From: Bacteroidia bacterium
GTDB lineage: Bacteria; Bacteroidota; Bacteroidia; UBA4408
Assembly (NCBI GenBank): GCA_020845635.1
Contig: JADLFI010000001.1
Coordinates: forward strand, 1,256 to 65,255
Direction of reading: 5' to 3'
DNA length: 64,000 nucleotides
Both the position numbers and the translations under genes were made by a program. The stretch's first letter is position 1. Each line of letters starts with the position of its first letter. The notes beneath the pieces were generated by a model that worked only from the letters and a program-made list of their open reading frames with translations, had not been told where the DNA came from and did no database searches. This document shows, in pieces, positions 34 to 21,244 of this stretch.

Positions 34-1710
34 TTAATTTAATACCACCACTCTTTTAAAAACCACTTCATCATTACTTTTTAGGTTAAAAAAATAAATC
101 CCACTCGGAAAGTTTTGTATATCAACATTAAATTGTTTTGTGTTTTGTATTGTTGTTCCATAAACAAGTTTTCCCGAAATATTATAAATATAAACCTCGC
201 TATTTTCCTTTGGCGTTAATACCGTAAAAACTCCCTTGTTCGGGTTGGGAAATAATTCAATGGTATGTTCAGGTTGGTGGTACTGAACCCTCAATGCGGG
301 GTTTTCAGTTAGTTTCAGTATAACCATGCTCATGATTGGATAATTAAGAAAAACACTGTCGGTGCCAATAGAGAAATGGGTTGCGTCTGTACTATATGTA
401 AATACTGAATTATCATAAGTAACAATATCATACGCAAAGTCATCGTAATTACAGCCTATTTTTGTATAAGACATCAAATTACCATCAGTATCGAATCGTT
501 CAAGCAACATATCATAGCTACTTACACTATTAGCCAAAATTGTATCTCCCAATTCATTTACAACAGTACCCCAATATTCATTAAGCAAATAAATAAACGA
601 AATATTGTCAATGCTTAAATCAACGATGTTCGTGCCTGCATTAGTTGTGTTATGAAGTGTTTTTGCCCATAAACGATTTCCATCTGTGTCAAAACGGGTC
701 AAAAAAGAGCTTCTAAAACCAACATTCCCATTCTTATTTATAGGTAAAATACCGTTAGAAAATTTCAGTTCCGCGTTAGTAAAAAAGCCGCCCACGGCAA
801 TTGTGCCATCTTCTAAACATTCGAGAGCAGTTATTGTGCTCGAACCATATTCATTGTTAATTGTGCCTGAAGAACTGTACATATACCGCACCCACTGTAA
901 TATGCCGTCAGGCGAATATTTTGCCAGATAGGTTGGGGAAAAGCAGGGAACAGGGAACACGATTTGATACGAACCAAAATTGGCTGTATCGGCAGAGGCG
1001 TAGTGATACAATTTTCCCGCAGCATATATGTTGTTATTAATGTCGGTTGTAACTGCTGTTCCCTCATCCGATTTGCCTGAATCCGTTACGCCTGCCGTAT
1101 TATACCAAATTTCGTTTCCGTTTTCATCGTATTTGGTAATAAATACATCATCATTTTCGTTTTTCCCGGTAATAAGAATGTTGTTTTGTCCGTCAACGAC
1201 AAGTCCTTTATCTCCCAATTTGTTACTCCCTGCTACGGATGTTCTCCACAAACGAGTTCCCGATGAGTCTAACTTAATTAATTCAACATTGCTTGTACTT
1301 AAACTAGTTATATATATGGAATCATCATACTCCAGATTATTTCCACCACCCCAACCACTGCTGTATGCAATAACAGAGTTTCCGTTACTGTCTATATCAA
1401 TCATTATTTTAAGACCTGCATAGGAAGTTGGAGGATTAACGATTCTTGCCACCCTTTTTAGCCACAGTAAAGTAAGGTCATTGTCGAACTTTGCAAGATA
1501 AATTCCTGCATTTGTTATGACAGAATCCTGTATTTCAAAATTACCTCTATACGTGCCTGCTGCGTAAATATTTCCATTATTGTCAACCACCATATTGCGT
1601 TGTGCATAAATTTCATCGTTGCCCCCTGTGGTATATTTCTGCAACAAATAATCCTGCCCGAAGCAAACGCTTTTTGAGAATACAATTAATATAAGCAGTA
1701 ACTTTTTCAT
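34..1710 (-). CDS. T9SS type A sorting domain protein with SBBP-like beta-propeller repeats
   Basis: N-terminal signal peptide; repeated 'vdxxgNiYvaG...l.K(f/y)dxxG..lW' blades; C-terminal T9SS CTD (IELFPNPNKG...IYNISGKLV...SGIYFF...KRVVVLN). Confidence 0.8.
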   Translation of the reverse strand: MKKLLLILIVFSKSVCFGQDYLLQKYTTGGNDEIYAQRNMVVDNNGNIYAAGTYRGNFEIQDSVITNAGIYLAKFDNDLTLLWLKRVARIVNPPTSYAGLKIMIDIDSNGNSVIAYSSGWGGGNNLEYDDSIYITSLSTSNVELIKLDSSGTRLWRTSVAGSNKLGDKGLVVDGQNNILITGKNENDDVFITKYDENGNEIWYNTAGVTDSGKSDEGTAVTTDINNNIYAAGKLYHYASADTANFGSYQIVFPVPCFSPTYLAKYSPDGILQWVRYMYSSSGTINNEYGSSTITALECLEDGTIAVGGFFTNAELKFSNGILPINKNGNVGFRSSFLTRFDTDGNRLWAKTLHNTTNAGTNIVDLSIDNISFIYLLNEYWGTVVNELGDTILANSVSSYDMLLERFDTDGNLMSYTKIGCNYDDFAYDIVTYDNSVFTYSTDATHFSIGTDSVFLNYPIMSMVILKLTENPALRVQYHQPEHTIELFPNPNKGVFTVLTPKENSEVYIYNISGKLVYGTTIQNTKQFNVDIQNFPSGIYFFNLKSNDEVVFKRVVVLN

Positions 1711-2141
1711 TAAAATGTTGTTTTGTAAAATAATTTTTCTCGGGTGGGAGAGGTGGAAGCTCTTACCACAGCTTTGGCTTGCGGGGTGGTTTTGATATTT
1801 TCCCGTTTCAATTTTTCCTCTGTATGTGTTGCTCGGAATAAGTTTGCAGCTAATTCAGTACTCCCCATATGGTCGAGAATATTTTGGCTTTTCTTCAAAC
1901 CTTTTTTTGTATGAATTTCTTTTTCGCCTGAGCCTATTTCAACTAATTTCTCCACACGGTGAAAATGGTCATTCGGCTCTTGCCCTGAGTTTTTACAAGC
2001 CTGTTTTGCTTTGCCAATTACATTGAGAAATTTATCCCATTTAATGTATTCCAACACCTCAAACAACTCCCTCGCACTCCAATATTCTTGCCCTATTTCA
2101 TTGGTGTGTTTTATTGCTTCAAATTTAGTATGAGTTGCCAT
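1710..2141 (-). pseudogene. dinD: DNA-damage-inducible protein D remnant (internal in-frame deletion, replaced C-terminus)
   Basis: BRO-like N-terminus (WSAREL...AKQACKNSG...DHF...IGSG) joined directly to the DinD C-terminal motif KGLKKSQNILDHMGSTELAANLFRAT; 143 aa versus about 270 aa for E. coli DinD. Confidence 0.8.
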
Positions 2142-2142
2142 A

Positions 2143-2445
2143 TTACTTTCTTTTGGTCTTATTGTATTTTACCTTTTCTTCTGCCACCTGCAAAGTTTTT
2201 AAAGCCACATCTTCATCTGCAACTTCATATACCAATTTGTCAGATAGCCAAGAAATAAGTAGGTCAGTTTCTTTAACCTTAAAAAATTCGGCAAGTTTTA
2301 TTACCTGTTTACGGTTGGCATTGCGCTGTCCTCTTTCTATTTTACTTAAAATTGCCTGGTCAATATCAAGGAATGCAGCAACTGTACGTAGGGGCAATTC
2401 CTTGTCTTCCCTTAGTTTTCTTATCGTTTCGCCTAAGCTGTTCAT
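2143..2445 (-). CDS. XRE-family helix-turn-helix transcriptional regulator
   Basis: LGETIRKLRE...LRTVAAFLDIDQAILSKIERGQR HTH_3 pattern. Confidence 0.9.
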   Translation of the reverse strand: MNSLGETIRKLREDKELPLRTVAAFLDIDQAILSKIERGQRNANRKQVIKLAEFFKVKETDLLISWLSDKLVYEVADEDVALKTLQVAEEKVKYNKTKRK

Positions 2446-2499
2446 ATTTCGGTTTTAGTCAATACAGGTTTTGAACAAATTTATTTTGAATGATTTTGT

Positions 2500-2507
2500 C
2501 AAAAGTA
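2500..2507 (-). promoter_or_regulatory. Bacteroidota -7 promoter element for the XRE gene, overlapping an imperfect palindrome
   Basis: TACTTTTG (TAnnTTTG) about 55 nt upstream of the ATG; overlaps TTTTGTCAAAA (2494-2504), a possible operator. Confidence 0.45.
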
Positions 2508-2692
2508 CAAATTTCTTTGGGCGAAGCATCTGAAAAAGTCTCCTAAGTTTTAAACATTATTATCATTTTCAGGTGGGCAAAATTGGCTAGACACTCGTCA
2601 TTTTGCTAATGCACTTATGTGGCTTTATTGATTCTAAATATTTATAGTTTAATTTTTATAAGATGAAATGCATGTACTTATCGTTTAATTCC

Positions 2693-2700
2693 TAAATTTG
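2693..2700 (+). promoter_or_regulatory. Bacteroidota -7 promoter element for comEC
   Basis: TAAATTTG 26 nt upstream of the ATG. Confidence 0.55.
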
Positions 2701-2726
2701 CAATACTAATCATCTTTTCTTATCAG

Positions 2727-4814
2727 ATGAATGTATGGAACACTATTCCTTTTGTAAGATTATTGATTGCTTTTTTGAGCGGACTTTTATTAGCTGTTAA
2801 TTATAGCAGTTTACCTCAAGTGCCCTTTTATTATTTTGTTGTTCCTTTTGTTTTATATTATTTCAGCCATAAATATTTTACGAATAATTATCAATACCGC
2901 TTTGTTATTGGTTTTCCAATTGTATTGTTTTTTTTCCTTTTCGGAATAAAGTTGGTTCAAGTAAATACTGAAATTTATTATCCTAATCATTTTAGTAAGT
3001 TGATAGAAAATAACTATGTGATTAGGGTAAACGAACCTCCCGTATCAAAAAACAGTTCTTTAAAATTTATTGGAGAAGTGGTTCAAGTGCAAAAAGGTAA
3101 TGATTGGGTTGCTACTAAAGGAAAAATACTGATTTATCTTGCCAAAGATAGCCGGGCACTTAAAATTCAGTATGGCGACATTTTATTGTGTAATGCTACA
3201 ACTTACGAAACACCAGCGCCTAAGAACCCTTTTGAATTTGACTATAAAGAATATTTGGCTTTTCATCAAATTTACCATCAGTCATATATCAATTCAACAG
3301 CTTGGGTTTCTACAAATTTGAATGATGCTAATCCTATTCTGAAATTAGCTTATAACACTAGAAATTATTTCTTAAAAACCATTTCGGAACACCATATATC
3401 AGGCGATGAATTAGCTATAGGCTCGGCACTTATATTAGGTTATGAGGATGAACTATCCAATGAAGTTGTTAGCGCATTTGCTGCTACCGGTGCTTTACAT
3501 GTACTTAGTGTTTCGGGGCTTCACGTTGGAATAATTTTTATTGTTTTTAATTTCCTACTGAAGTTTATGGGCGAAAGCAAAACGGCTAAAATTATTCGCT
3601 TTATTTTGTTGCTTGCTATTTTATGGTTATACGCTATTCTAACAGGTTTATCCCCTTCGGTATGGCGGGCTTCGGCTATGTTTAGCTTAATAACCATCGG
3701 GAAATTTTTCAAGAAAGAAACCAATACCTTTAATATTATTGGATGTTCGGCATTTATATTATTATGTATTAAACCTTTTATGATAACGGAAGTAGGATTT
3801 CAGCTATCCTATTTGGCAGTTATAGGTATTATTGCATTGTATAAATATTTTTACGAGTTGTTTGTTTTTAAGAATTGGTTGGCCGATAATTTTTGGTCAA
3901 TAACCTGTGTATCTATTGCCGCCCAATTAGCAACATTTCCTTTGGGTTTATTGTATTTTCACCAGTTTCCAAACTATTTCTTATTTTCCAATTTGGTAAT
4001 TATCCCACTCTCAACCATTATTTTATATGGTGGGGTGCTTTTATTGGTAATTGCTAAAATACCTATAATAGGAGTAGTTACGGCCAAAATATTGTATTTC
4101 TTATTGTGGACACTTAAAAGCACGGTGGAGTTATTCGAAAAATTGCCTTTTGCTGTTGTTGAAGGTGTGGCTATTACTACCTTTCAAACATTCTTAATTT
4201 ACGGTCTTATCATTGGAATAATTTGTTTATGGCAATTAAAGAAAAGTGTTTTTTTGAAATCTTCTTTGGTTTTATCAGTATTGTTAAGTTCTTTGTTTAT
4301 CATTAATCAATGGCAATTAAATCAGCAGCATAAAATTGTAATTTATGCAATCAACAACAGCTCGGCTATTGATATTATTAAAGGTTCTGATAATGTACTT
4401 TTAGCCGATAGTGCCCTTTTGTCAAACAGCGATAAAATAAGGTTTCATCTTATCCCCAATTGGAATAATAATGGATTACGAAAAGTTCAGAAATATGTTG
4501 ATACGGTTACAACCATAGCAAATACTTCTTTTGTAAAAAAGCAGAATCATTATTTATTTTGTAATAATCTTACTGTATTATGTACACAAGCCGATATAAA
4601 AATGTTCAGCGATTTAAAATATAAACCTGACATTGTAATATTAAACAAAAGAAATAAAAAGCGATTCAGGTCATTATTTTATATCTTTCCTGAAGCCGAA
4701 TTTATTTGTGATGGAACTATCTCCGAGAACTTTTTGGCTTCATTAATAAAGCAAAACCCTCAATTAAAATTAAGAGGCGTTAACAAGGAAGGAGCAATTA
4801 GTATAAATATTTAA
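2727..4814 (+). CDS. comEC: ComEC/Rec2 family competence membrane protein
   Basis: DUF4131-like N-terminus, HVLSVSGLHVG and SVWRA motifs, VGFQLSY, multiple TM segments. Confidence 0.9.
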   Translation: MNVWNTIPFVRLLIAFLSGLLLAVNYSSLPQVPFYYFVVPFVLYYFSHKYFTNNYQYRFVIGFPIVLFFFLFGIKLVQVNTEIYYPNHFSKLIENNYVIRVNEPPVSKNSSLKFIGEVVQVQKGNDWVATKGKILIYLAKDSRALKIQYGDILLCNATTYETPAPKNPFEFDYKEYLAFHQIYHQSYINSTAWVSTNLNDANPILKLAYNTRNYFLKTISEHHISGDELAIGSALILGYEDELSNEVVSAFAATGALHVLSVSGLHVGIIFIVFNFLLKFMGESKTAKIIRFILLLAILWLYAILTGLSPSVWRASAMFSLITIGKFFKKETNTFNIIGCSAFILLCIKPFMITEVGFQLSYLAVIGIIALYKYFYELFVFKNWLADNFWSITCVSIAAQLATFPLGLLYFHQFPNYFLFSNLVIIPLSTIILYGGVLLLVIAKIPIIGVVTAKILYFLLWTLKSTVELFEKLPFAVVEGVAITTFQTFLIYGLIIGIICLWQLKKSVFLKSSLVLSVLLSSLFIINQWQLNQQHKIVIYAINNSSAIDIIKGSDNVLLADSALLSNSDKIRFHLIPNWNNNGLRKVQKYVDTVTTIANTSFVKKQNHYLFCNNLTVLCTQADIKMFSDLKYKPDIVILNKRNKKRFRSLFYIFPEAEFICDGTISENFLASLIKQNPQLKLRGVNKEGAISINI

Positions 4815-4829
4815 ATGAAGGTAAAAACA

Positions 4830-4849
4830 TCAAGCCCTCCTTTGCTTGA
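4830..4849 (-). terminator. possible intrinsic terminator between convergent comEC and lpxD
   Basis: TCAAGC/GCTTGA stem with an 8-nt loop, followed by a T-rich stretch on the minus strand. Confidence 0.3.
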
Positions 4850-4961
4850 GGCGATTGGAATGATTGTATAGTACAATACATTATTACATCAGGTTTTTAG
4901 CTATATATAATACTTGCTATTGTCTTGATTTTGTATGTTGTTTTAGGATATTCAATAACGA

Positions 4962-5897
4962 TTATTTATTCCTCAACTCTTCAATAATTTGAGGCAACTT
5001 CCTTATTAAAGCAAGTTCTTTCCATTTTTCACGCGCATCATCAACAGGAGCTCCAAAGTAGGTTTTTCCTCCCTCTAATGATTTTGAAATACCCGATTTT
5101 CCAAGAACTACCGCGCCTTTCCCAATGGTTAAATCCTTTTGTACTCCCACCTGCCCCCACAATATTACATTATCCTCAATGGTTACTACCCCGGCTATGC
5201 CCACTTGAGCGGCAAATAAACAGTTCTTTCCAATTTGTGTATCATGGCCAATGTGAATTTGATTATCGAGTTTAGAGCCACTCCCTATAATGGTATTCCC
5301 ACTAACTCCTTTATCAATAGAGCATAGTGCGCCTATCTCAACATTATCATGAATAATTACACGACCTGATGAAATCATTTTATCATAACCTTCAGGCTTT
5401 TTCTTAAAATAAAATGCATCACTGCCAATTACTGTTCCGGCATGTATTACAACATTATTACCAATAATGGTATTGTCGTATATGGTAACATTGGGGTGTA
5501 TTAAACAATGGTCTCCTATAACTACATTTTCGCCTAAAAATACGCCCGGTTGAATAATTGTATCAGCGCCTATTTTTGCAGTATTGCTTATTTTTTGATA
5601 GGCCGGAACAAACTTTACAAATTGTTTTACTAAATTATTATATGCATCAAAGGGCATATCGTTAAAGATTAGCGATTTTCCCTCAGGACACTTCATTCTT
5701 TTATTAATAATGACAACCGAGGCCTTTGAGTTTAGTGCTTTATCGTAATATTTGGGGTGATCTACAAAAGTAATATCACCAGGCTCAACCATGTGAATTT
5801 CATTAATGCCACTAATAGCGAGGTTTGGGTTGCCATCAAAATCGCTGTTAAGCATAGAGGCTATTTCTGAAAGTGAATAATCTCTTGGGAATTTCAT
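4962..5897 (-). CDS. lpxD: UDP-3-O-acylglucosamine N-acyltransferase (LpxD family)
   Basis: LpxD N-domain (GDITFVDHPKY), hexapeptide repeats, KLDNQIHIGHD motif. Confidence 0.9.
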   Translation of the reverse strand: MKFPRDYSLSEIASMLNSDFDGNPNLAISGINEIHMVEPGDITFVDHPKYYDKALNSKASVVIINKRMKCPEGKSLIFNDMPFDAYNNLVKQFVKFVPAYQKISNTAKIGADTIIQPGVFLGENVVIGDHCLIHPNVTIYDNTIIGNNVVIHAGTVIGSDAFYFKKKPEGYDKMISSGRVIIHDNVEIGALCSIDKGVSGNTIIGSGSKLDNQIHIGHDTQIGKNCLFAAQVGIAGVVTIEDNVILWGQVGVQKDLTIGKGAVVLGKSGISKSLEGGKTYFGAPVDDAREKWKELALIRKLPQIIEELRNK

Positions 5898-5941
5898 AAG
5901 AAAAAAAATAAAAAGAGGCTAAGAAAATTTTCTTAGCCTCT
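5898..5941 (-). terminator. rho-independent terminator after efp
   Basis: Perfect 28-bp palindrome AGAGGCTAAGAAAATTTTCTTAGCCTCT (5914-5941) followed by a long T tract on the minus strand. Confidence 0.8.
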
Positions 5942-5966
5942 ACAAAGTTATAAATATAATTGAATT

Positions 5967-6527
5967 TTATTTAACTCTTTCAACATAAGTTGATGTTCTT
6001 GTGTCAACTTTAATTTTATCGCCCTGATTGCAGAATAAAGGAACATTCACAATAGCACCTGTTTCAATAGTGGCTTGCTTTAGGGTGTTTGTAGCTGTAT
6101 CACCTTTAATTCCCGGCTCGGTATAGGTAATTTCTACTTCCACAAAAGTTGGTGCTTCGGCAGATATAGGTGTTTCATCTTCAAAAGCCACTTTCACTTC
6201 CATACCTTCTTTCATAAATTTTAAACCATTTCCAAATAAATCTGACGGAATACTTAATTGTTCAAAGGTTTCATTATCCATACAAATAATATCATTACCA
6301 TCACTGTAAATGTATTGTAATGTTTTATACTCAACGCGAGCTACAATTACTTCTTCACCACTTCTAAAACGGTATTCAACCGATTTTCCGGTTTTTAAAT
6401 TTTTCATCTTAGCTTGGTAAAATGCACGCAAATTGCCGGGTGTACGATGTTGGTATTCGGTAATTACACACAATTCATTATTAAATCTAATGATTGAACC
6501 TACGTTTATATCTCCTGTTGTAGCCAT
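5967..6527 (-). CDS. efp: translation elongation factor P (PGNLR loop variant)
   Basis: 186 aa; C-terminal PGIKGDTATNTLKQATIETGAIVNVPLF...KVDTRTSTYVERV signature. Confidence 0.95.
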   Translation of the reverse strand: MATTGDINVGSIIRFNNELCVITEYQHRTPGNLRAFYQAKMKNLKTGKSVEYRFRSGEEVIVARVEYKTLQYIYSDGNDIICMDNETFEQLSIPSDLFGNGLKFMKEGMEVKVAFEDETPISAEAPTFVEVEITYTEPGIKGDTATNTLKQATIETGAIVNVPLFCNQGDKIKVDTRTSTYVERVK

Positions 6528-6554
6528 TTTTTATTAATTATAAAATTAGAGGCG

Positions 6555-6562
6555 CGAAATTA
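6555..6562 (-). promoter_or_regulatory. -7 promoter element variant for efp
   Basis: TAATTTCG (TAnnTTCG) 27 nt upstream of the ATG. Confidence 0.45.
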
Positions 6563-6655
6563 ATTATTTTTATATTTTTATGCAAATTGCCTTAAAATAT
6601 TTTTTTAGAAACATGGGTATATTCCATAGTTGGAAAAGGCAACATTGCGTATAAA

Positions 6656-12985: not shown

Positions 12986-14425
12986 ATGAACCAAACCAAC
13001 CAACTGCAACAAACCAATTACAAAGCCTTAACATCATTGGTTACGGTATTCTTTTTTTGGGGCTTTGTAGCTGCCAGTAACGATATTTTAATTCCTGTAT
13101 TTAAAAGTGCATTCTCTTTAACCCAAAGGCAAAGTCAGTTGGTGTCTTTTGCGTTCTATATTGCTTACACTGTTGGTTCTATTATATATATGCTTATTTC
13201 TTTAGCGATAAAGCAAGATTTAATAAACAAAATGGGTTATAAAAATAGTTTGGCTTTGGGTTTATTTATTTCAGCTTTAGGTACTTTGTTGTTTTATCCG
13301 GCAGCAAACTTACATTCCTACCCATTAATGCTCATGGGCTTGTTTGTGGTGGCACTTGGTTTCTCATTACAGCAAACCGTGGCTAATCCCTTAGCTATTT
13401 CATTAGGCCCTCACCAAACCGGAGCCAACCGATTAACTTTGGCAGGAGGTATCAATAATTTTGGAACAAGTATAGGACCTTTAATTATCAGCTATGCTAT
13501 TTTTGGTTCTTCTACAAATACAGAAACCACAATGAACATTGAAGGGGTAAAAATTCCTTACCTTATTTTAGGCATTGCTTTTTTGTTGGTGGCGCTTATG
13601 TTGAAATTTTCTAAAATTCCCAACCACCCCGATGATGTTCAGGAAGATGTAAAAAGGAATGAACACGATCGCAAGTCGGCACTTCAATACCCGCAATTAG
13701 TGTTAGGAATGATAGCTATCTTTGTTTATGTTGGGGTAGAAGTTTCAACTGCAAGCAATTTGCCCTACTATATGGAACAAAAATTACATATAGAAACGCA
13801 GTACATTGCTCCTTATATTTCATTGTATTGGGCAAGTTTAATGATTGGTCGTTGGTCGGGTGCGGTGGAAGTATTAAGTGCCAAAAAGGAGGTTCAGCGC
13901 TTGTTGAAAATAGTTATGCCTTATTTGGCATTTGCAGCTTTTTTGCTTATAAACATTATTGCCGGCCATAACCTGGCGCCTTTTTATATGTATGCCGGTG
14001 TAATTATTTTATTGATTATTGCCGATATGATGAGTAATGGAAACCCTATACGTATGTTGTTGCTGTTTTCTATTATGGGGGCTTTGGGAATTCTTGTTGG
14101 AATGAATGCCGGGGGTATGATTAGTGTGTATGCCTTTACCAGCGTGGGTTTGTTTTGCAGCACTTTGTGGCCTTGCATTTTTGCACTCGCTATTAGCGGT
14201 TTAGGAAAAAATACAAGTCAGGGGAGCAGTTTTTTAATTATGATGATAATGGGTGGTGGAGTAGTTAGCTGGATACAAGGTTACGTAGCCGATAAAACAG
14301 ATATTGAAACAAGCTATTGGGTTGGTGTAATATGTTTCTTATATCTTATTTTTTATGCCATTGCCGTTAAACGCATTTTACATTTGCAAGGTATAAGTTA
14401 TGAAACCAACCAACTAAGCCACTAA
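12986..14425 (+). CDS. MFS sugar permease, FucP/GluP family
   Basis: VFFFWGF...NDILIP, LQQTVANP, YVGVEV, LWPCIFALA motifs; 12 or more TM segments. Confidence 0.88.
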   Translation: MNQTNQLQQTNYKALTSLVTVFFFWGFVAASNDILIPVFKSAFSLTQRQSQLVSFAFYIAYTVGSIIYMLISLAIKQDLINKMGYKNSLALGLFISALGTLLFYPAANLHSYPLMLMGLFVVALGFSLQQTVANPLAISLGPHQTGANRLTLAGGINNFGTSIGPLIISYAIFGSSTNTETTMNIEGVKIPYLILGIAFLLVALMLKFSKIPNHPDDVQEDVKRNEHDRKSALQYPQLVLGMIAIFVYVGVEVSTASNLPYYMEQKLHIETQYIAPYISLYWASLMIGRWSGAVEVLSAKKEVQRLLKIVMPYLAFAAFLLINIIAGHNLAPFYMYAGVIILLIIADMMSNGNPIRMLLLFSIMGALGILVGMNAGGMISVYAFTSVGLFCSTLWPCIFALAISGLGKNTSQGSSFLIMMIMGGGVVSWIQGYVADKTDIETSYWVGVICFLYLIFYAIAVKRILHLQGISYETNQLSH

Positions 14426-14514
14426 TTAATGCAATAAGAAGTATTGTCTGCCTTTTGATTGTGCGTTGGTGTTTGCCTTTTTTTCTTGTATGACTTGTTT
14501 GTTCTAATTTGTTC

Positions 14515-14633
14515 AATTACGAATTATTAATTATGAATTATGAATTACGAATTACGAATTGTTAATTACGAATTATGAATTACGAATTATGAATTATGAA
14601 TTACGAATTACGAATTATGAATTACGAATTACG
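14515..14633 (+). repeat. heptamer tandem array, 17 x AATTA(C/T)G-type units
   Basis: Parses cleanly into 17 units (aattacg, aattatg, plus one aattatt and one aattgtt); the last unit contains the TAA stop of the adjacent gene. Confidence 0.97.
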
Positions 14634-14982
14634 ATTTTTTTATTGTTGTTTGAATTTTTCCAATTATTCTACAAATTTCTTCACTGTCATTTATTAAACT
14701 ATCTGCCATTTCTTTCGACAAATAATCTGTTGCATATAGTAATTTTATCCAATACAAAGTTTCTCTAGCTTCTTTGTAGGCAATTGAAATTTTTGAAATA
14801 AAATCTGCTTTTGATTGCCCACCAATCGCTTCTTCTACATTTGCTCCAATAGATGTACCGCTTCGAAGCAGTTGTTTTGATAACACAAACTCTTTCTTTT
14901 CATTCCTTAAGATTTTATATGTGTTTACAATTCTAATTGCAAATGCAAAACTTTTTGTTTGAATAACGTTGTCCTCTTTCAT
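14629..14982 (-). CDS. four-helix-bundle protein (TIGR02436 / 23S-IVS-protein-like), copy 1, 117 aa
   Basis: KSFAFAIRIV...SKQLLRSGTSIGANVEEA...S.ADFISK.SI..KEARET.YWI.LL family pattern; start placed at ATG 14982 by alignment with copy 2. Confidence 0.9.
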   Translation of the reverse strand: MKEDNVIQTKSFAFAIRIVNTYKILRNEKKEFVLSKQLLRSGTSIGANVEEAIGGQSKADFISKISIAYKEARETLYWIKLLYATDYLSKEMADSLINDSEEICRIIGKIQTTIKKS

Positions 14983-14984
14983 TT

Positions 14985-15005
14985 CGTAATTTTTAATTCG
15001 TAATT
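14985..15005 (-). repeat. heptamer array, 3 units, inverted relative to 14515-14633
   Basis: Minus strand aattacg-aattaaa-aattacg, ending 2 nt before the ATG of copy 1. Confidence 0.85.
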
Positions 15006-15064
15006 GTTTCAACTCCCCAAACTTCACTGATTTTGTCTTTTATTTTTTGTTCAAAGATTTCAAA
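14993..15064 (-). pseudogene. orphan 3' end of a second M-S allele
   Basis: Translates as FEIFEQKIKDKISEVWGVETITN*, parallel to the M-S end ...QNQIKSVIDKVWGINENK*; an in-frame stop lies immediately upstream. Confidence 0.7.
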
Positions 15065-15069
15065 TTAAT

Positions 15070-15111
15070 AAATACGAATTACGAATTGTTAATTACGAAT
15101 TACGAATCACG
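15070..15111 (+). repeat. heptamer array, 6 units
   Basis: aaatacg-aattacg-aattgtt-aattacg-aattacg-aatcacg; the last unit contains the TGA stop of copy 2. Confidence 0.92.
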
Positions 15112-15460
15112 AGTGTTTCATTGTTATTTGAATTTTTCCGATAATTCTACAAATTTCTTCACAGTCATTTATTAAACTTTCTGCCATTTCTTTCGACAAA
15201 TAGTCTGTTGCATTTAGTAATTTTATCCAATACAAAGTTTCTCTAGCTTCTTTGTAGGTAATTGAAATTTTTGAAATAAAATCTGCTTTTGATTGCCCAC
15301 CAATGGCTTCTTCTACATTTGCTCCAATAGATGTACCGCTTCGAAGCAGTTGTTTTGATAACACAAACTCTTTCTTTTCATTCCTTAAGATTTTATATGT
15401 GTTTACAATTCTAATTGCAAATGCAAAAGACTTTTCTTGTATTACATTATTTGTTTTCAT
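15107..15460 (-). CDS. four-helix-bundle protein (TIGR02436-like), copy 2, 117 aa
   Basis: 107/117 aa identical to copy 1; its start overlaps the last 14 nt of the M-S frame. Confidence 0.9.
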   Translation of the reverse strand: MKTNNVIQEKSFAFAIRIVNTYKILRNEKKEFVLSKQLLRSGTSIGANVEEAIGGQSKADFISKISITYKEARETLYWIKLLNATDYLSKEMAESLINDCEEICRIIGKIQITMKHS

Positions 15461-15509
15461 TTATTCCCCAAACTTTATCAATTACAGATTTTATTTGATT
15501 TTGCTTCTC

Positions 15510-15537
15510 TGTAATTTTTAATTTGTAATTCGTAATT
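15510..15537 (-). repeat. heptamer array, 4 units, inside the M-S C-terminal helix (EITNYKLKITE)
   Basis: Minus strand aattacg-aattaca-aattaaa-aattaca. Confidence 0.85.
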
Positions 15538-16019
15538 TCTACCTCATAGCCTTCTATTTCGGCTACTATTTGTTGTTGTATTTCAAGTGGCGGAAGGGGG
15601 ATTTCTATTTCTGCTAAATCACTAGCAGTTATACTTGGATATTGTCCTTTACCACTCATCGCTACCATTTGTTCAACAATAACATCTTGATTTAATACAT
15701 AGTAAAGATACCTTCCTAAAACATTTTCATTTTCTGAAAGTACAGCAAACCCTGTTGAAGCAATGCAATTTTAGGAACATTTTCCATATATGCAAATGCT
15801 CTTAAATTTGGTCTTACTGTCGATACTAGAACATCACCATTTTTTACAACTCGTCTTGCTCTACTTGGCGCTTCATTAGGATTTATCCATTTGTTGAAAG
15901 AAACTTTTCCTGTTCCATTTTCAACTGCTTCAATATCGATATAAGCAAACGGCTCATTCTTAAAGATTTTTATTGGGTCAATTGCTTGTGAATTTATTTT
16001 GACAACATCACCAAGTTTC

Positions 16020-16054
16020 ACTAATTCGTAATTCGTAATTTTTAATTCTTCATT
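16020..16054 (-). repeat. heptamer array, 5 units, at the methyltransferase/TRD junction (NEELKITNYELV)
   Basis: Minus strand aatgaag-aattaaa-aattacg-aattacg-aattagt. Confidence 0.85.
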
Positions 16055-16135
16055 CTTAAAATACCTTTCACCACTCAACACCACATCTTTATTCGCTAAA
16101 ACCGTTTCCTTTTCAACCAAAGTTGCCATTTTTTC

Positions 16136-16241
16136 AATTACGAATGATGAATTACCAATTACGGTTTTCAAGGCAGTAAATATTTCATCTTTTGTAATTT
16201 CTAATTCGTAATTTGTAATTATTTCCTTGTAATTCGTAATT
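16136..16241. repeat. in-frame inverted heptamer pair inside hsdM (4-unit arm, 29-nt loop, 6-unit arm)
   Basis: Arms at 16136-16163 and 16193-16241; 22/28 matches in the inner register; translated AITNYKEIITNYELEITK...VIGNSSFVI. Confidence 0.85.
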
Positions 16242-16831
16242 GCCTCCAAAGCGGCAGGTAAATCGTTTTTATCAATTATTCTGCGTTGTGCTCCAAGGTC
16301 AAAACCATCGTTTTCAATTTTCAAAAACAAAATGTGTTGGCTTTTCTTCGCTAACTTTTTATCTAAAATCAATACACTTGTTTTTACTCCGCTATAGGGT
16401 TGAAACACGCCTGCGGGCAAACTAATCACGGCTATTAAACTATCTTGCACCAACATTTTTCGCAATTGTTTGTAAGCGGTTTGGCTGGTGGCTACTATGC
16501 CGTTGGGTACTACAATTCCTGCACGTCCGTTGCTGTTCAGGTGTTCGGCAATGTAATCGGTAAACAACACTTCGGCTTTGTTGGCTTGTACGCCAAATTT
16601 CTTGTGTGGTCGTATGCCACCTTTTGGTGTCATAAAGGGCGGGTTTGCCAATATCACATCAAAGGTTTCCTGCCAACGGTCTTCACTGCTCAAGGTATCG
16701 TATTCGTGTATTTGCGGTGTAGCAAAGCCGTGTAAATACATATTTGCTAAACTCAACCGCACCATATCGGGGCTAATGTCGTAACCCACTATGTTTTGCC
16801 CAAGTTTTCTGCGTTCGTCAGGTGTTAAGCC

Positions 16832-16907
16832 AATCACGAATTTAGAATTACGAATTGCGGGTTTGTTTTTGTCGCTGTTTGTAATTGGTAATTCGTCATT
16901 TTTAATT
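16832..16907. repeat. in-frame inverted heptamer pair inside hsdM (4-unit arm, 20-nt loop, 4-unit arm)
   Basis: Arms at 16832-16859 and 16880-16907; 19/28 matches; translated IKNDELPIT...AIRNSKFVI. Confidence 0.8.
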
Positions 16908-17509
16908 GAATTATTTAAGATGTGTTTGTATGCACTCAACAAGAAACCGGCCGTTCCGCAAGCAGGATCAAGCACAGTTTCGTTTTTCTGTGGGTTTACA
17001 CAAGCAGTTACAAAATCAATAATGTGTCGGGGTGTTCTAAACTGTCCTGCATCGCCTTGGCTTCCCATTACACTCAACAGATACTCAAAAGCATCGCCCA
17101 ACTTTTCGCTGTGGCTGTATTCGAACTCGTTGATGTATTTTAAAAATAGTTTCAGCGTGGCAGGGTCACGGTAGGGCAGGTAAGCATTTTTAAAAATGTT
17201 TCGGAACAGTTCGGGAATATTCGGATTGGTGTTTAGTTTTTCCAATGCCTCACTGTAAAGCGAAAGCATATCCTGTCCGCTTAATGATGGGTCGAATAAT
17301 TTACGCCAACCGTATTTGGCATAATTGCCTGTAAAAAACTTGGCTTTGCCTTTAAATTTCTCCACGGCTTCCTTATCCATATCGTCCATAAACTTATAGA
17401 TAAGAGCTAATGTAATTTGCTCAATTTGGCTTTTGGGGTCGGGCACTTTGCCTACCAGCACATCGCGGCAATCATCAATATTTTTTTTGGTTATGTTGTC
17501 GAGCATAGT

Positions 17510-18221
17510 CTGTTATAATCATTTCACCCCTTCGGGGTTTTATAATAATGTCAGCCCTTCGGGCTTTTTTGTTTATTCCATTACGTTTTTTTATAATCAT
17601 TTCTTTTTGTTTATTCCATTACGTTTTTTTTATAATCATTTCATTCTATAATCATTTCACCCCTTCGGGGTTATTGTTTATTCCTATATCATAATCCATA
17701 ATTATATCAGCCCTTCGGGCTTTTTTGTTTCATTATCTAATCCCGAAGGGATGATAATATTGTAACAAAAAATTCCCATACTGTTACCCAACCCCGAAGG
17801 GGTGGCATTATTCAATCCATTCAAACAAATATTTTTCATCATATTCCATTCCATAATTATATCAGCCCTTCGGGCTTTTTGTTTATTCCATTACGTTTTT
17901 TTTATAATCATTTCATTCTATAATCATTTCACCCCTCCGGGGTTTTTGTTTATTCCTATATCATAATCTATAATTATATCAGCCCTTCGGGCTTTTTTGT
18001 TTATTCCATTACGTTTTTTTTATAATCATTTCATTCTATAATCATTTCACCCCTTCGGGGTTATTGTTTATTCCTATATCATAATCTATAATTATATCAG
18101 CCCTTCGGGCTTTTATTCATTTCATCCCATCGGGTTTTTTGTTCCATTATCTAATCCCGAAGGGATGATAATATTGTAACAAAAAATTCCCATACTGTTA
18201 CCCAACCCCGTAGGGGTGGCA
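17510..18221. repeat. REP-like palindrome array (13 hairpins A(C/G/T)CCC-TTC/GAA-GGG(G/C/A)T plus one degenerate copy)
   Basis: ACCCCTTCGGGGT-type at 17526, 17659, 17931 (TCC loop), 18049; AGCCCTTCGGGCT at 17553, 17709, 17864, 17981, 18099; opposite-orientation ATCCCGAAGGGAT at 17740, 18154 and ACCCCG(A/T)AGGGGT at 17791, 18205; 117-118 bp higher-order period. Confidence 0.92.
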
Positions 18222-18683
18222 TTATTCAATCCATTCAAACAAATATTTTTCATCATGTTCAATCTCAAACTTCTTCAAAAAATCTATATACTCTTCCCTA
18301 AACGTTTTCACTTTATGATGTTCTTCCTGATTCAAAATGTAATTGTACACATTCTCAATATGCGAATGAGAATATGAAAACGCACCATAACCTTCTTGCC
18401 ATTGAAACTTTCCTTGTATCAACTTATTATCATTTATCCATTTGCTTGAGTTGTTTTTTATATCTCTAACCAAATCCGATATGAGCATAGATGGTTTCAA
18501 CCCAACAAAAACATGAATATGGTCGGGCATACCATTCACTATAATTGATTTCTGGTTCTTCGCTTTGATAATCCCTGCAATATATTTATGCAAATCATCT
18601 TTCCATGCCTTTCCAATTAAATTTGCTCTGCCTTTAACTGCAAAAACAATCTGAATATAAATTTGTGAAAATGTGCCTGACAT
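18222..18683 (-). mobile_element. IS200/IS605-like Y1 HUH transposase, probably REP-associated (RAYT)
   Basis: IQIVFAVKGR, DHIH (HUH), FQWQEGYGAFS, catalytic Y in YILNQEEHH; directly followed by the REP array; no tnpB. Confidence 0.88.
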
Positions 18684-18685
18684 AA

Positions 18686-21244
18686 TTAACTGTTTAAAAA
18701 TTTATTCAACGGAACGTATGTCTTAACATAGTTAGGCAGTTTGCTTTTCATTTCGTCCGGCACACGGTTAAAATCATCTACATTAAACGTTGGGTTGTGA
18801 TATAATTCGGTAAAATCTTGTTGGTCTATTATTTTTCTTACACTTGGATCGGTGATGTAGGCGTAAAAGAAATAGCGTAAACCTTGTAAATCATTAATGT
18901 CGGAAACATTGTTGGTGCTAAGGAATTTTTCAAATTCATCATTCAATAAATCGTCTTTCCCTTTTATTTGATTACCGAAATAAATAAGTTCCAACAATTC
19001 ACGCCAACTAATTTTACGGTCAATCTTTAACGATCTGCGAAGTTTTTCCAAATCAAAATATTCTTCGGGTTTGTTGTCGTATTTCTCTTTGGCTCTTGCT
19101 GTGGCGATTTCAACATCACCTGCTTCCATCAGTTGTTTTATTTCTTCATCGGTTTTTACTTTCTCCTCAAACTGCTGAAAAAACATTCGGTCAATCTTCA
19201 TTCCTGTAAAGTCAACTTGCTGTTCGTTCCAAGTGGCAATTTTGTCGTTCTCCTTGTATTCGTAACCGTCACGCTTTGGTTTTAGCGTATTGTCATCAAC
19301 TGTTGGAATGTCATCGCCTTGCTTAAAGTTTTTAGGCAGTTTTAATACTTGGTCGTACTGATATTTTTCTTCAAAGTATTCGCAAGTGGCAAAGAAGTCA
19401 AAGAGCTTAAAAGTGGCTTTGTCAATGGAAATTGTTTCTTCTTCTCCCAGTTCGTTTTTGAATTTATGCTCAAACGTGTGAACACGAGTTCCACGCCCTT
19501 TTATCTGTATAAATTCTGTTGGAGAAAATATCGGTCGCATTAAAGCTAAGTTCAAAATATTGGGGCAATCCCAACCTGTGGTCATCATGCCTACCGTTAC
19601 ACAAACTCTTGCTTTACTAGTTTTATAAGAATCTAAAATTTCATTGCCTTTTGCAAAATTGCTAAAGCCTAATAATTTGTCGTTACTGTAATCAACGGTC
19701 ATTTGCTGACTGTTTTGCACATTAGAAGTTACCTGAACGGCAAAGTCGCTTTGATACTTGCCGGGGAAATATTGATGTGCATATTCATTGAGTAATTGAG
19801 CCAATTTTGCAGCGTGATTTTGCGAAACGGCAAAAACTAAACTCTTTCCAAATTCTCCGTTAATCGGGTCTTTCAATCCATTTTCAATAAATGTTTTGCA
19901 AAACACTCGGTTGGTTTCATCGCTAAAAAATTTCCGCTCAAAGTGATTTTGTTTGTATTTCACTTCTTCCAAAACATCTTCCTGCTCGCTGGTGGCAACC
20001 GTAACCATTACGCCATAACCCTGCTCAGAAAGCAGTTTGGTAGTTACATCTGTTCTTGCATCCACAACAATAGGCTGTCGCAAATAGCCGTCTTTAGCAC
20101 CGTCCACAAGCGAATAACGATACGTTGGAATGCCACTCTCACAACCAAAGGTAGTGTAAGTGTCAAGCAACATTCTACGTTCAAGTTCTCTGGGGTCTTC
20201 AATATTTTCGGTGTCCAAATGTTTTAAATAGTCCTTTGGTGTGGCTGTCAAGCCCAATTTGTAACCCAAGAAATATTCAAACAAAGCTCGGCTGTTTCCA
20301 CCTCCTAACAATCGGTGCGATTCGTCAGAAATGATTAAATCAAAGTCGGTTGGTGAAAACAGTTTTTTGTATTTGTTATTCACCATTAACGATTGAATGG
20401 TAGTAACAACAATTTCTGCTTTTCTCCAGTCGTTGCGTTTTTCTTTGTAAACAACCGTTGTCAGGTCGTTCTTTAAATAGTTTGTAAAATCTTTTCTTGC
20501 TTGTTCTTCCAATTCCAAACGGTCAACCAAAAACAAAACTCGTCTTGCGTTGCCGGTTCTGTAAAACAATTTGATGATAGCAGCAGATGTCAGCGTTTTT
20601 CCTGTTCCTGTTGCCATTTCAAGCAAGAAACGTTTTTTGCCTTCGCTTACTGCTTTCTGAACGGCTTGAACTGCTTCAACTTGGTAATATCTTAAGAAGC
20701 GAAGTTTTAAATTGAAAATTAAGTCCTTCTTTTTCTGTTCGTCTTGAAACTCCGGTATTTGTTTGTAGTTTGGTAGCTGTGTCAATACAACATAGTCAGC
20801 ATTTACTTCTTCGCTAACTAATTTGTTCGGGTCGGGATTGAACTCATAATATTGTTTAATGGATTCCAATGTCGGGAAAACTTGAATTGGTTCAGGATTT
20901 CCGGATTCAATGTTCCATAAATAATGAAATGTGCCGTTAGATAGAATTACAAACTTTACTTTTTGCGACTTGGCGTAATTTCTTGCTTGTTCTTTTCCAA
21001 CAAGCGGATTCAGGCTTTCCTTTTTTGCTTCTAAAACAAGAACAGGATTTTGGTTTTCGTCAACTAATAAAAAGTCAATAAAGCCGTTTTTAGAATGTTC
21101 AAAATCTTCTCCTAAATCGTCCATTTTGATGGAAGATTCAAGTTTGATGGTGGCTTTACCTTTGTCCGTGTCAAAGAAACGCCAGCCAGCTTCTTCAAGC
21201 AGTTTGTTAATCTTAATTCTTGCCTTTGCTTCTTTTTCAGCCAT
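18686..21244 (-). CDS. hsdR: Type I restriction enzyme R subunit (EcoEI-like DEAD/DEAH helicase-nuclease)
   Basis: N-terminal PD-(D/E)xK (IDFLL...VLEAKK), MATGTGKT, DESHR, GLTATP, TTGWD, QIKGRGTR. Confidence 0.92.
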   Translation of the reverse strand: MAEKEAKARIKINKLLEEAGWRFFDTDKGKATIKLESSIKMDDLGEDFEHSKNGFIDFLLVDENQNPVLVLEAKKESLNPLVGKEQARNYAKSQKVKFVILSNGTFHYLWNIESGNPEPIQVFPTLESIKQYYEFNPDPNKLVSEEVNADYVVLTQLPNYKQIPEFQDEQKKKDLIFNLKLRFLRYYQVEAVQAVQKAVSEGKKRFLLEMATGTGKTLTSAAIIKLFYRTGNARRVLFLVDRLELEEQARKDFTNYLKNDLTTVVYKEKRNDWRKAEIVVTTIQSLMVNNKYKKLFSPTDFDLIISDESHRLLGGGNSRALFEYFLGYKLGLTATPKDYLKHLDTENIEDPRELERRMLLDTYTTFGCESGIPTYRYSLVDGAKDGYLRQPIVVDARTDVTTKLLSEQGYGVMVTVATSEQEDVLEEVKYKQNHFERKFFSDETNRVFCKTFIENGLKDPINGEFGKSLVFAVSQNHAAKLAQLLNEYAHQYFPGKYQSDFAVQVTSNVQNSQQMTVDYSNDKLLGFSNFAKGNEILDSYKTSKARVCVTVGMMTTGWDCPNILNLALMRPIFSPTEFIQIKGRGTRVHTFEHKFKNELGEEETISIDKATFKLFDFFATCEYFEEKYQYDQVLKLPKNFKQGDDIPTVDDNTLKPKRDGYEYKENDKIATWNEQQVDFTGMKIDRMFFQQFEEKVKTDEEIKQLMEAGDVEIATARAKEKYDNKPEEYFDLEKLRRSLKIDRKISWRELLELIYFGNQIKGKDDLLNDEFEKFLSTNNVSDINDLQGLRYFFYAYITDPSVRKIIDQQDFTELYHNPTFNVDDFNRVPDEMKSKLPNYVKTYVPLNKFLNS

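Follow-up and report, generated by a model that had tools for sequence, protein, structure and literature searches.

The stretch of DNA analyzed here (64,000 nucleotides of a Bacteroidia bacterium genome, assembly GCA_020845635.1, contig JADLFI010000001.1, positions 1,256 to 65,255 of the forward strand; henceforth the window) carries on its minus strand a type I restriction-modification (RM) operon that is recognized by Pfam, NCBIfam and PADLOC. The product of its modification gene combines matches to PF02384, PF12161 and PF01420, an architecture that, together with the neighboring HsdR, identifies it as a type I methylase-specificity (M-S) fusion, in this case with a single target recognition domain (TRD). 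More than 100 relatives carry the same fusion, and in one of these PADLOC detects both MTase_I and Specificity_I (P0058; P- and L-numbers are our handles for relatives and their loci). Directly downstream lie two genes of the PF05635 family ('23S rRNA intervening sequence protein'), coding for S23p/Avd-like four-helix-bundle (4HB) proteins, and short tandem arrays of heptamers are scattered through this region (Table 1). An earlier reading based on the letters alone (the sequence-only reading) had singled out two of these arrays, one on each side of the TRD, as possible crossover sites for its replacement or deletion, and had left the PF05635 genes unconnected with them. The evidence assembled below favors a different view, namely that the arrays are probably the stem-forming arms, along with arm-derived copies, of a small selfish cassette that resembles the intervening sequences (IVSs) of 23S rRNA and carries the 4HB gene.

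Table 1. Features of the RM operon, its heptamer arrays and the 4HB cassettes, in window coordinates
Feature	Position	Strand	Basis or remarks
3' arm, cassette 2	14515-14634	+	17 heptamer copies, reverse in gene direction
4HB gene 2	14629..14982	-	91% identical to gene 1
5' arm, cassette 2	14983-15005	-	contains third AATTAAAAATTAC copy
Remnant of two-TRD S C-terminus, 76 nt	14993..15068	-	(L)IEIFEQKIKDKISEVWGVETITN followed by stop; adjoins 3' arm of cassette 1
3' arm, cassette 1	15070-15112	+	reverse array starting at 4HB stop codon
4HB gene 1, 117 aa	15107..15460	-	PF05635 1e-27; TIGR02436; PDB 2RLD 1e-35
hsdM-hsdS fusion, single TRD, pseudogene	15447..17506	-	Pfam N6_Mtase, HsdM_N, Methylase_S
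C-side array = 5' arm, cassette 1	15510-15538	-	translated EITNYKLKIT in last S-moiety helix
Conserved helix start after TRD1, EIPLPPLEIQQQIVAEIEGY	15547..15605	-	blastn vs L006, L012, L015
TRD1, cluster 0 allele	15606..16005	-	blastn breakpoints vs L010, L011, L012: 16005/16017, 15605
N-side array	16021-16059	-	encodes KNEELKITNYEL, directly before VKLGD start of TRD
ORF-less arm pair, M-to-TRD linker	forward 16191-16241; reverse 16136-16162	-; +	
ORF-less arm pair, loop after methyltransferase motif I	forward 16881-16900; reverse 16839-16858	-; +	
G+C-rich hairpin repeat field, ~700 nt	about 18200..17513		
IS200-like Y1 transposase gene, between hsdR and hsdM	18222-18683	-	Pfam Y1_Tnp
hsdR (852 aa)	18686..21244	-	Pfam ResIII + HSDR_N_2; PADLOC REase_I

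Viewed in the direction of the genes, arrays on the minus strand of the window are forward and those on its plus strand reverse. Matches to AATTACGAATTAC with at most two mismatches number 39 against an expectation of 5.7 and a maximum of 12 in any shuffle, and 37 of them fall within 14515-16900. The 13-mer AATTAAAAATTAC is present three times (16035-16047, 15511-15523 and 14986-14998), where 0.08 occurrences are expected and no shuffle contained three. Altogether the window holds nine AATTACG-type arrays, in both orientations. The two arrays noted previously are indeed found on the gene strand, encode NEELKITNYELV immediately before KLGDV and EITNYKLKITE respectively, both contain AATTAAAAATTAC and share the same orientation; nevertheless, the image of a TRD bracketed by a pair of arrays captures just two of the nine, others being inverted. 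Repeats of AATTACG have no stop in any of the three frames and encode the heptad ITNYELR; the reverse complement CGTAATT introduces a stop into every frame within 21 nucleotides, and inside hsdM it is mutated (GNSSFVIE, IRNSKFVIG). A general rule that forward arms are stop-free in all frames was considered and dropped, as it holds for AATTACG but not for the common units AATTAAG and AATTAGG.

Inside hsdM, two pairs of inverted arrays lacking an open reading frame (ORF) between them are translated in frame. The pair in the linker reads AITNYKEIITNYELEIT...GNSSFVIE and inserts about 17 aa that array-less alleles lack; that in the loop after motif I reads NDELPITN...IRNSKFVIG and lengthens the protein by about 18 aa in comparison with the QNTDKRQGDKLKPDD allele. 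The latter site holds other heptamer units in relatives, for example ATGAGTT/AACTCAT in L006. The N-side array, when aligned with array-less alleles, stands in for the usual linker (ETVKSQTEFEL) with its length nearly unchanged, and forms one longer haplotype with the hairpin upstream of it. In metagenomic contigs the long AATTACG array (14528-14641) reaches a word depth of 1000-6600 versus 5-50 in its flanks (runs X1, X12, X15 and X17), from which it follows that AATTACG arrays are very abundant in wastewater and activated-sludge communities.

Both 4HB genes in the window are bracketed by inverted arrays, with a forward heptamer array, the 4HB ORF and a reverse-complement array beginning at the stop codon following each other in this order, and two such cassettes are arranged in tandem. 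Their gene content is limited to 4HB, and no transposase is encoded. The ATG of 4HB gene 1 lies 14 nucleotides ahead of the S stop codon, and hence overlaps with the S reading frame. The tandem arrangement corresponds to a 478-nt duplication (14579-14878 versus 15057-15356, 92% identity) encompassing an S-like tail, the 4HB gene and the reverse arm, and the downstream arm of the duplicated unit has been expanded to a tract with a 21-nt super-period. In the minimum free energy (MFE) and centroid predicted folds alike a stem formed by the two arms closes the ORF in both cassettes (z = -3.5 and -3.1), the C-side array of cassette 1 pairing with the array at the 4HB stop codon. The ORF-less pairs in hsdM are likewise predicted to fold as hairpins (z = -4.8 for 16839..16900 and z = -2.2 for 16136..16241). 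Metatranscriptome contigs cover the locus, one of them crossing the S/4HB junction (15309-15597), and point to its transcription. There is no Rfam match at E <= 1 in 14000-18400, and no defence-system model in PADLOC matches the 4HB protein.

The same anatomy recurs in relatives of the M-S gene. In four loci recovered by exact-protein look-up (L006, L010, L011 and L012) the 4HB gene is flanked by a forward and a reverse array; the cassette of L006 has a different unit (AACTCAT/ATGAGTT), which also makes up the in-frame hairpin of the hsdM loop at this locus. Among 80 more distant metagenomic M-S relatives period-7 arrays are rare, and they lie beside a 4HB gene in L050 and L059 only. Taken together, arrays adjoin the 4HB gene in all seven M-S loci that have one, whereas AATT-type arrays are seen in 4 of the 79 without a visible 4HB gene (hypergeometric probability ~6e-8, with the qualification that the loci are not independent). 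The association was further examined in 80 loci from named genomes (L096-L175), which contain protein relatives of 4HB at 55-85% identity and come from Bacteroidota, Ignavibacteria, Verrucomicrobiota, Kiritimatiellota, Planctomycetota, the Candidate Phyla Radiation (CPR), Proteobacteria, Firmicutes and others; cultured organisms among them are Flavobacterium ranwuense LB2P22 (L142), Chryseobacterium taihuense CGMCC 1.10941 (L165), Ancylomarina euxinus M1P (L149) and Flavobacterium sp. 9AF (L137). A period-7 array is present within 200 nucleotides of the 4HB ORF upstream in 64 and downstream in 68 of these loci. Tandem Repeats Finder (TRF) rows with periods of 7, 14, 21, 28 or 35 make up 144 of 176 near the 4HB gene as against 101 of ~300 in the far flanks, a density about 15 times greater. 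Among the 55 two-sided loci, the downstream unit agrees with the reverse complement of the upstream one, allowing one mismatch, in 49 (exactly in 34), as opposed to a mean of 23 and a maximum of 32 in 2000 permutations of the arm pairings. The units themselves belong to 23 different heptamer families, including AATTACG, AATTAGG, AATTAAG, ATGACAG, TAACAAA and CAATGCA. The arms of these cassettes covary, and it is the ability to pair that is conserved in them, not the sequence.

The genomic settings of the cassettes are diverse: the 63 genes found upstream of them comprise 106 Pfam families, for example those of glyQ, mreB, lpxC, pdxJ, mutS and nuoD, and though the most frequent hosts are RM methylase or S genes, they account for only 4-5 cases. 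Cassettes are co-oriented with their host genes, in the M-S case overlapping the end of the host gene, and their G+C content lies on average 9 points below that of the flanks while tracking that of the host (r = 0.87). The 117-aa 4HB protein is 55-85% identical between phyla as distant as Bacteroidota, CPR, Verrucomicrobiota, Firmicutes and Proteobacteria, and such identity at this distance points to frequent horizontal transfer of the gene. Many host proteins bear array-encoded C-terminal tails, such as ...ITNYGLRIKN and ...TNYELQITNYEL.

An explanation at the protein level would be that the coding arrays were selected as protein heptads from which the coiled-coil spacer in the S moiety is built or extended, the periodicity of the DNA being a by-product. 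In its favor, three heptamers amount to 21 nucleotides and thereby one heptad, the C-side array lies within the helix that forms the S coiled coil, and the length of this helix is conserved; moreover, the spacer length of EcoR124-type enzymes is determined by repeats in their central conserved region. The same units, however, also occur in non-coding sequence, in reverse and as 17 tandem copies downstream of the gene, a single protein site holds unrelated units in different relatives with the arms still mutually complementary, and identical arrays flank 4HB genes beside unrelated housekeeping genes. We therefore attach very little probability to selection of the arrays for their peptide.

Equally improbable in our estimate is that the arrays are the hairpin ends of a DNA transposon or miniature inverted-repeat transposable element (MITE) mobilized in trans by the Y1 transposase, here as a putative member of the kind associated with repetitive extragenic palindromic (REP) sequences and termed REP-associated tyrosine transposase (RAYT). 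The Y1_Tnp gene is situated 700 nt from hsdM with the hairpin repeat field alongside it, Y1 transposases act on DNA hairpins, and the same insertion between hsdR and hsdM recurs in the relatives L015, L178, L017, L074, L079 and L091. Against this, the hairpins beside the transposase are of a different, G+C-rich type (GCCCGAAGGGC / ACCCCTTCGGGGT, with a 118-nt unit in 2.2 copies), and a Y1 gene is missing from the examined stretch of the cassette-bearing loci L006, L010, L011 and L012. A relative of this transposase within 3 kb was found in none of the 80 4HB loci, and on this ground a link between the arrays and the neighboring Y1 gene was rejected. The Y1 gene and its hairpin field (17513-18683) themselves resemble a REP/RAYT pair, although the score with the NCBIfam model REP_Tyr_transpos lies below the cut-off.

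The IVS-like reading, on the other hand, has a precedent in the S23p IVSs in the 23S rRNA genes of Coxiella burnetii, Leptospira, Xanthomonas and others, whose genes belong to the same family, PF05635, and whose terminal inverted repeats similarly form a long stem with the ORF in its loop. The window cassette shares with them both the PF05635/TIGR02436 ORF and terminal inverted repeats which, judging from predicted folds and covariation, close that ORF. In the Coxiella 23S IVS the S23p ORF is in addition preceded by tandem heptamers (GACAGAT) in variable number, and RNase III cuts the terminal stem (PMC4990558). The differences are that the S23p IVSs lie in helix 25 or 45 of the rRNA, whereas the window cassette is located in a protein-coding operon; that both arms of the latter are heptamer arrays and its 5' arm is translated in the host protein; and that ORF-less arm pairs are found in frame inside hsdM, with processing being predicted by analogy. 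A general description of heptamer-armed PF05635 cassettes was not found beyond the Coxiella IVS in the literature searched, which did not extend to subscription journals.

RNA processing, the movement of the cassette and the role of the 4HB protein are matters of inference. By analogy with the 23S rRNA IVSs, the two arms would pair in the transcript so as to enclose the ORF, and RNase III would cut the resulting stem. As tandem heptamers can pair in many registers, such a stem would survive slippage. Translation of the last S-moiety helix runs on through the forward arm of cassette 1, which is made possible by AATTACG being open in all three frames and encoding the heptad ITNYELR. The N-side array and the two arm pairs in hsdM may then represent copies of arms that have reached nearby variable linkers and loops, with conversion or insertion as the probable route, and are tolerated there. 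In this last respect they recall the Rickettsia palindromic elements, hairpin repeats that functional proteins tolerate in frame within their variable surface segments; unlike those, the arms in the window are heptamer arrays with variable units that share their unit with a neighboring cassette.

Heptanucleotide repeats have been described as short tandemly repeated repetitive (STRR) sequences, with TAACTGA as an example, in cyanobacteria, Beggiatoaceae and Bacteroidetes, and a function in translational regulation was proposed for them; TAACTGA repeats are mostly forward and just upstream of start codons, with occasional reverse sets after stop codons (PMC4679880). Like the arrays in the window they are short tandem arrays of 7-nt units with a patchy distribution over the same phyla, but the study in question (PMC4679880) draws no link to PF05635 genes or to paired inverted arms. 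In one CPR locus (L145, Shapirobacteria; about 1342-1370) the downstream arm of the 4HB gene consists of TAACTGA repeats, the heptamer whose abundance in Beggiatoaceae, cyanobacteria and Bacteroidetes had been described as unexplained. The architecture reported here would tie these patchily distributed repeats of Bacteroidota, cyanobacteria and sulfur bacteria to a specific gene, and would account for peculiar peptides of low complexity, ITNYELRITNYE for example, that appear in annotated proteins.

The relation of cassette 1 to the M-S gene becomes apparent from comparison with relatives. Most of these are 810-920 aa long and consist, in their S moiety, of TRD1, a central conserved helix, TRD2 and a C-terminal helix, while a minority of 640-666 aa has a single TRD. 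In the two-TRD relatives L006, L012 and L015 the match to the window ends at 15546/7, where AEIEGY is completed and 9 nt remain to the C-side array; it resumes at about 15068, abutting the reverse arm of cassette 1. Between these edges lie 478 nt that hold first the forward arm (EVEITNYKLKIT), then an S-like tail (EKQNQIKSVIDKVWGINENK and a stop codon), 4HB gene 1 and finally the reverse arm. Downstream there follows the remnant of the C-terminus of a two-TRD S protein listed in Table 1, with which the C-terminus of P0003, EIFEQKIKDKISEVWGVKTIAN, can be compared. These edges at the arms and the downstream remnant place cassette 1 in the position of TRD2. We propose that the cassette, bringing along its own S-like tail, took the place of a segment of an ancestral two-TRD HsdM-HsdS fusion that reached from the distal part of its central conserved helix through TRD2 into the proximal part of its last helix. 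This would have left a single-TRD ('half-S') enzyme and, downstream, the 76-nt remnant of the old C-terminus.

An identical layout, with a single-TRD M-S gene, an arm in the last helix, 4HB, a reverse arm and a remnant, was found in L010, L011, L050, L109 and L118. L010 and L011 are close relatives that differ in their TRD1 alleles and agree in the cassette layout, and these two share with L109 and L118 the arm along with an overlapping 4HB gene; L109 is a Pontiella metagenome-assembled genome (MAG) and L118 a betaproteobacterial MAG, with an AT-rich forward arm inside a G+C-rich host gene. Remnants analogous to that in the window are present in L010, L011, L012, L050, L109 and L118, and start at differing points of the post-TRD2 helix in different lineages, which suggests that TRD2 was replaced recurrently, the alternative being a single event followed by erosion. 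The two-TRD gene of L012 is intact, with the cassette behind it and the S 3'-end present once more beyond the reverse arm. As a tentative generalization, which we hold with reserve, heptamer-armed 4HB cassettes may constitute a cross-phylum class of IVS-like mobile elements that reside within operons and even within reading frames, whose arms evolve in concert as complementary 7-nt arrays and which, in type I systems, have repeatedly replaced TRD2 while supplying a substitute C-terminus. If this is correct, a bipartite asymmetric specificity would have been turned into that of a half-S enzyme, presumably palindromic, and a selfish element would have opened a route to new restriction specificities.

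There is a laboratory counterpart to such an event: Meister and colleagues are said, in EMBO J of 1993, to have described a truncation of EcoDXXI hsdS by Tn5 from which a half-S protein dimerizes and recognizes a symmetric site. There as here, an insertion removes TRD2 from a two-TRD S protein and leaves a single-TRD protein. In contrast to EcoDXXI::Tn5, the present case is natural and probably recurrent (at least six loci in four phyla), the element supplies an S-like C-terminal tail, and the S moiety of the window is fused to M and frameshifted, and is known here from its sequence. Recurrent replacement of TRD2 would thus be the natural counterpart of the laboratory Tn5 half-S enzymes, and a route by which type I specificity could change.

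Several points weigh against the view just developed. A detectable array is absent on one side in about a fifth of the 80 4HB loci, and this sample represents the PF05635 subfamily reached by two peptide patterns as opposed to the whole family. Template switching at the DNA level within a quasi-palindrome could maintain the covariation of the arms without selection for an RNA stem. The metatranscriptome evidence consists of unstranded contigs, for which carry-over of DNA is possible. No pair of otherwise identical genomes with an empty and a filled site was found. The single-TRD relatives L176 and L178 have neither a 4HB gene nor an array-bearing helix, which indicates that loss of TRD2 does not always depend on a resident cassette; the junction in L176 does show a weak 7-nt periodicity, in keeping with the idea of decayed arrays in array-less single-TRD proteins such as P0071 and P0007, but it could be codon bias. 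Finally, the N-side array abuts the boundary of TRD1 and is joined to four different TRDs, and it may contribute to some exchanges. As a separate observation, L015 (8660-8956), which has no visible 4HB gene, has the last ~60 nt of the S frame duplicated around G+C-rich hairpins (GACCCCGCAGGGGTC), showing that duplication of the host 3' end accompanies REP-like insertions too.

The exchange of TRD1 itself, for which the sequence-only reading had invoked the arrays, was studied by splitting 120 relatives at conserved anchors; about 95 proteins could be parsed, and they fall into 25 TRD1 clusters, which bears out heavy shuffling of TRDs in this family. The cluster 0 allele of the window is also found in P0001-P0009, P0013, P0014, P0023 and P0028. 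The N-side array (KN[DE]ELKI[TAS]NYE[LF]) is present in 7 of ~96 relatives in conjunction with four TRD1 clusters (0, 10, 12 and 18), and the C-side array in three proteins with three clusters, overlapping a 4HB gene in all three. The TRD is accordingly not invariant among carriers of the arrays, and to that extent the earlier proposal withstands comparison. An unlikely version of it would be that the arrays are portable tracts of homology, at which recombination deletes TRD1 or exchanges it for another, no dedicated recombinase being needed. Consistent with this, the two arrays are direct repeats with 13 nt of shared identity in the same frame, such that a crossover would produce an in-frame M protein devoid of the TRD; the array-bearing linker is joined to its four TRD1 clusters with the break immediately past the array; no recombinase is encoded within 10 kb; and the junctions of TRD2 loss adjoin arrays.

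The breakpoints of TRD1 nevertheless tell against it. The same TRD boundaries are used in array-less alleles: clusters 0, 12 and 18 each occur in proteins that have the N-side array and in others that lack it, array-less linkers, of which ETVKSQTEFELVK is one, also have several clusters as partners, and the N-side break at 16005-16017 coincides with the motif ELVK(L/I)G(D/E), which is conserved at the start of every TRD and at which array-less pairs (L178 versus L010) also break. On the C-side the alleles converge again at 15605, where EIPLPPLEIQQQ begins, and 67 nt separate this break from the array, farther downstream, at which breakpoints had been anticipated. The longest identity between the two arrays, 13 nt, is contained in imperfect arrays of 28-38 nt, and such a length is far below that needed for efficient RecA-dependent exchange in Escherichia coli. 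Most arrays of this type lie outside RM genes. In contigs from eight metagenomes that contain this strain the TRD is invariant and the predicted joint of a ~500-bp deletion between the arrays is absent, although rare variants would be missed in contigs; apparent array joints in these contigs derive from other array-bearing loci or from related strains with other modules. Judging from the breakpoints, TRD1 exchange is ordinary homologous recombination in the long conserved flanks, that is the M/linker region and the EIPLPPLEIQQQIVAEIEGY helix, and is independent of the arrays. Given the boundaries shared with array-less alleles, the C-side break away from the array and the occurrence of arrays outside RM systems, the bracketing of the TRD is a by-product: one of the two flanking arrays is a cassette arm, and the other is a tract derived from an arm. 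Hence, of the role ascribed to the arrays in TRD replacement or deletion, what survives is that TRD2 loss has its junctions next to them. As exchange in this M-S family requires just long conserved flanks, the arrays should not be taken as a device for shuffling TRDs without a recombinase.

Repeats in or beside hsdS that are linked with a change in TRD content are also a feature of phase-variable type I systems, which include the inversions of SpnD39III and hsdS or hsdM genes controlled by simple sequence repeats (SSRs) (PMC4948785, PMC7394358, PMC7383803). Unlike the SpnD39III shufflon, the window has a single S moiety and a 76-nt remnant, has no inverted hsdS repeats, and has direct arrays around its TRD. 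The earlier statement that no invertase is present was borne out to the extent that no gene with an integrase or invertase Pfam match occurs within ~10 kb on either side, again in distinction from the shufflon; the sole mobile-element gene there is that of the Y1 transposase. Operation of the arrays as simple-sequence contingency tracts, in which gain or loss of 7-nt units would switch the M-S gene in the manner of a phasevarion, is hardly credible. It is true that, 7 not being a multiple of 3, a change by one unit shifts the frame, that the copy number of non-coding arms varies widely between loci (from about 3 to more than 17), and that the heptamers of the Coxiella IVS vary among strains (PMC4990558). 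Yet unlike the repeats of an SSR phasevarion the units of the coding arrays are imperfect (AATTACG/AATTACA/AATTAAA), and these arrays have no length polymorphism, being of equal length in every carrier (EITNYKLKIT, EITNYKLRIT, EIANYKLKIT and EITNYELEIT on the C-side; KN[DE]ELKITNYEL on the N-side). No array indels were seen in the contigs of the eight metagenomes, which drop rare variants. In view of the constant length in carriers and the lack of indels in contigs, phase variation by unit number was rejected.

The frameshift that does affect the M-S gene lies in an A-run of the TRD and not in an array. The run at 15769-15772 is short of one A, which splits the gene into ORFs of 596 aa (17506..15716) and 73 aa (15668..15447); restoring this A yields an M-S protein of 686 aa colinear with its relatives. 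Identical broken ORFs of 596 and 73 aa are present in five assemblies, namely the MAG GCA_009612875.1 and four independent Logan assemblies, and contigs from the eight metagenomes show no indel at the A-run, the frameshift being fixed everywhere examined. The agreement of independent assemblies and metagenome contigs establishes the frameshift as real. The intact frame expected of a functional M-S enzyme is thus lacking in the window, and the RM system of this strain is on account of the frameshift probably inactive, although hsdR is full length.

PF05635/TIGR02436 genes are among the commonest unexplained small operon genes in bacteria, including those in RM, CRISPR and diversity-generating retroelement (DGR) loci, and covarying inverted heptamer arms would give the 4HB genes a testable identity as IVS-like cassettes. 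PF05635 proteins have been noted to resemble Avd of DGRs (PMC10053308), and genes of this family have been observed inside CRISPR-cas loci (PMC3936711). A DGR/Avd context for the genes in the window was considered and rejected, as no reverse transcriptase (RT) domain is found among the genes within 10 kb and the repeats are heptamer arrays, not a template repeat/variable repeat (TR/VR) pair. Downstream of a cassette remnant in L010 (4081-4467), a 21-nt unit, TTCGCAATTCAGTAAGCAGGA, is repeated in 18 copies and reaches the end of the contig. In the single-TRD relative L176 (4882-7877) the RM operon is directly followed by a gene for a NACHT/iREase-like protein and then by one with a RelA_SpoT domain, which suggests that the surroundings of this RM system are a defence island.

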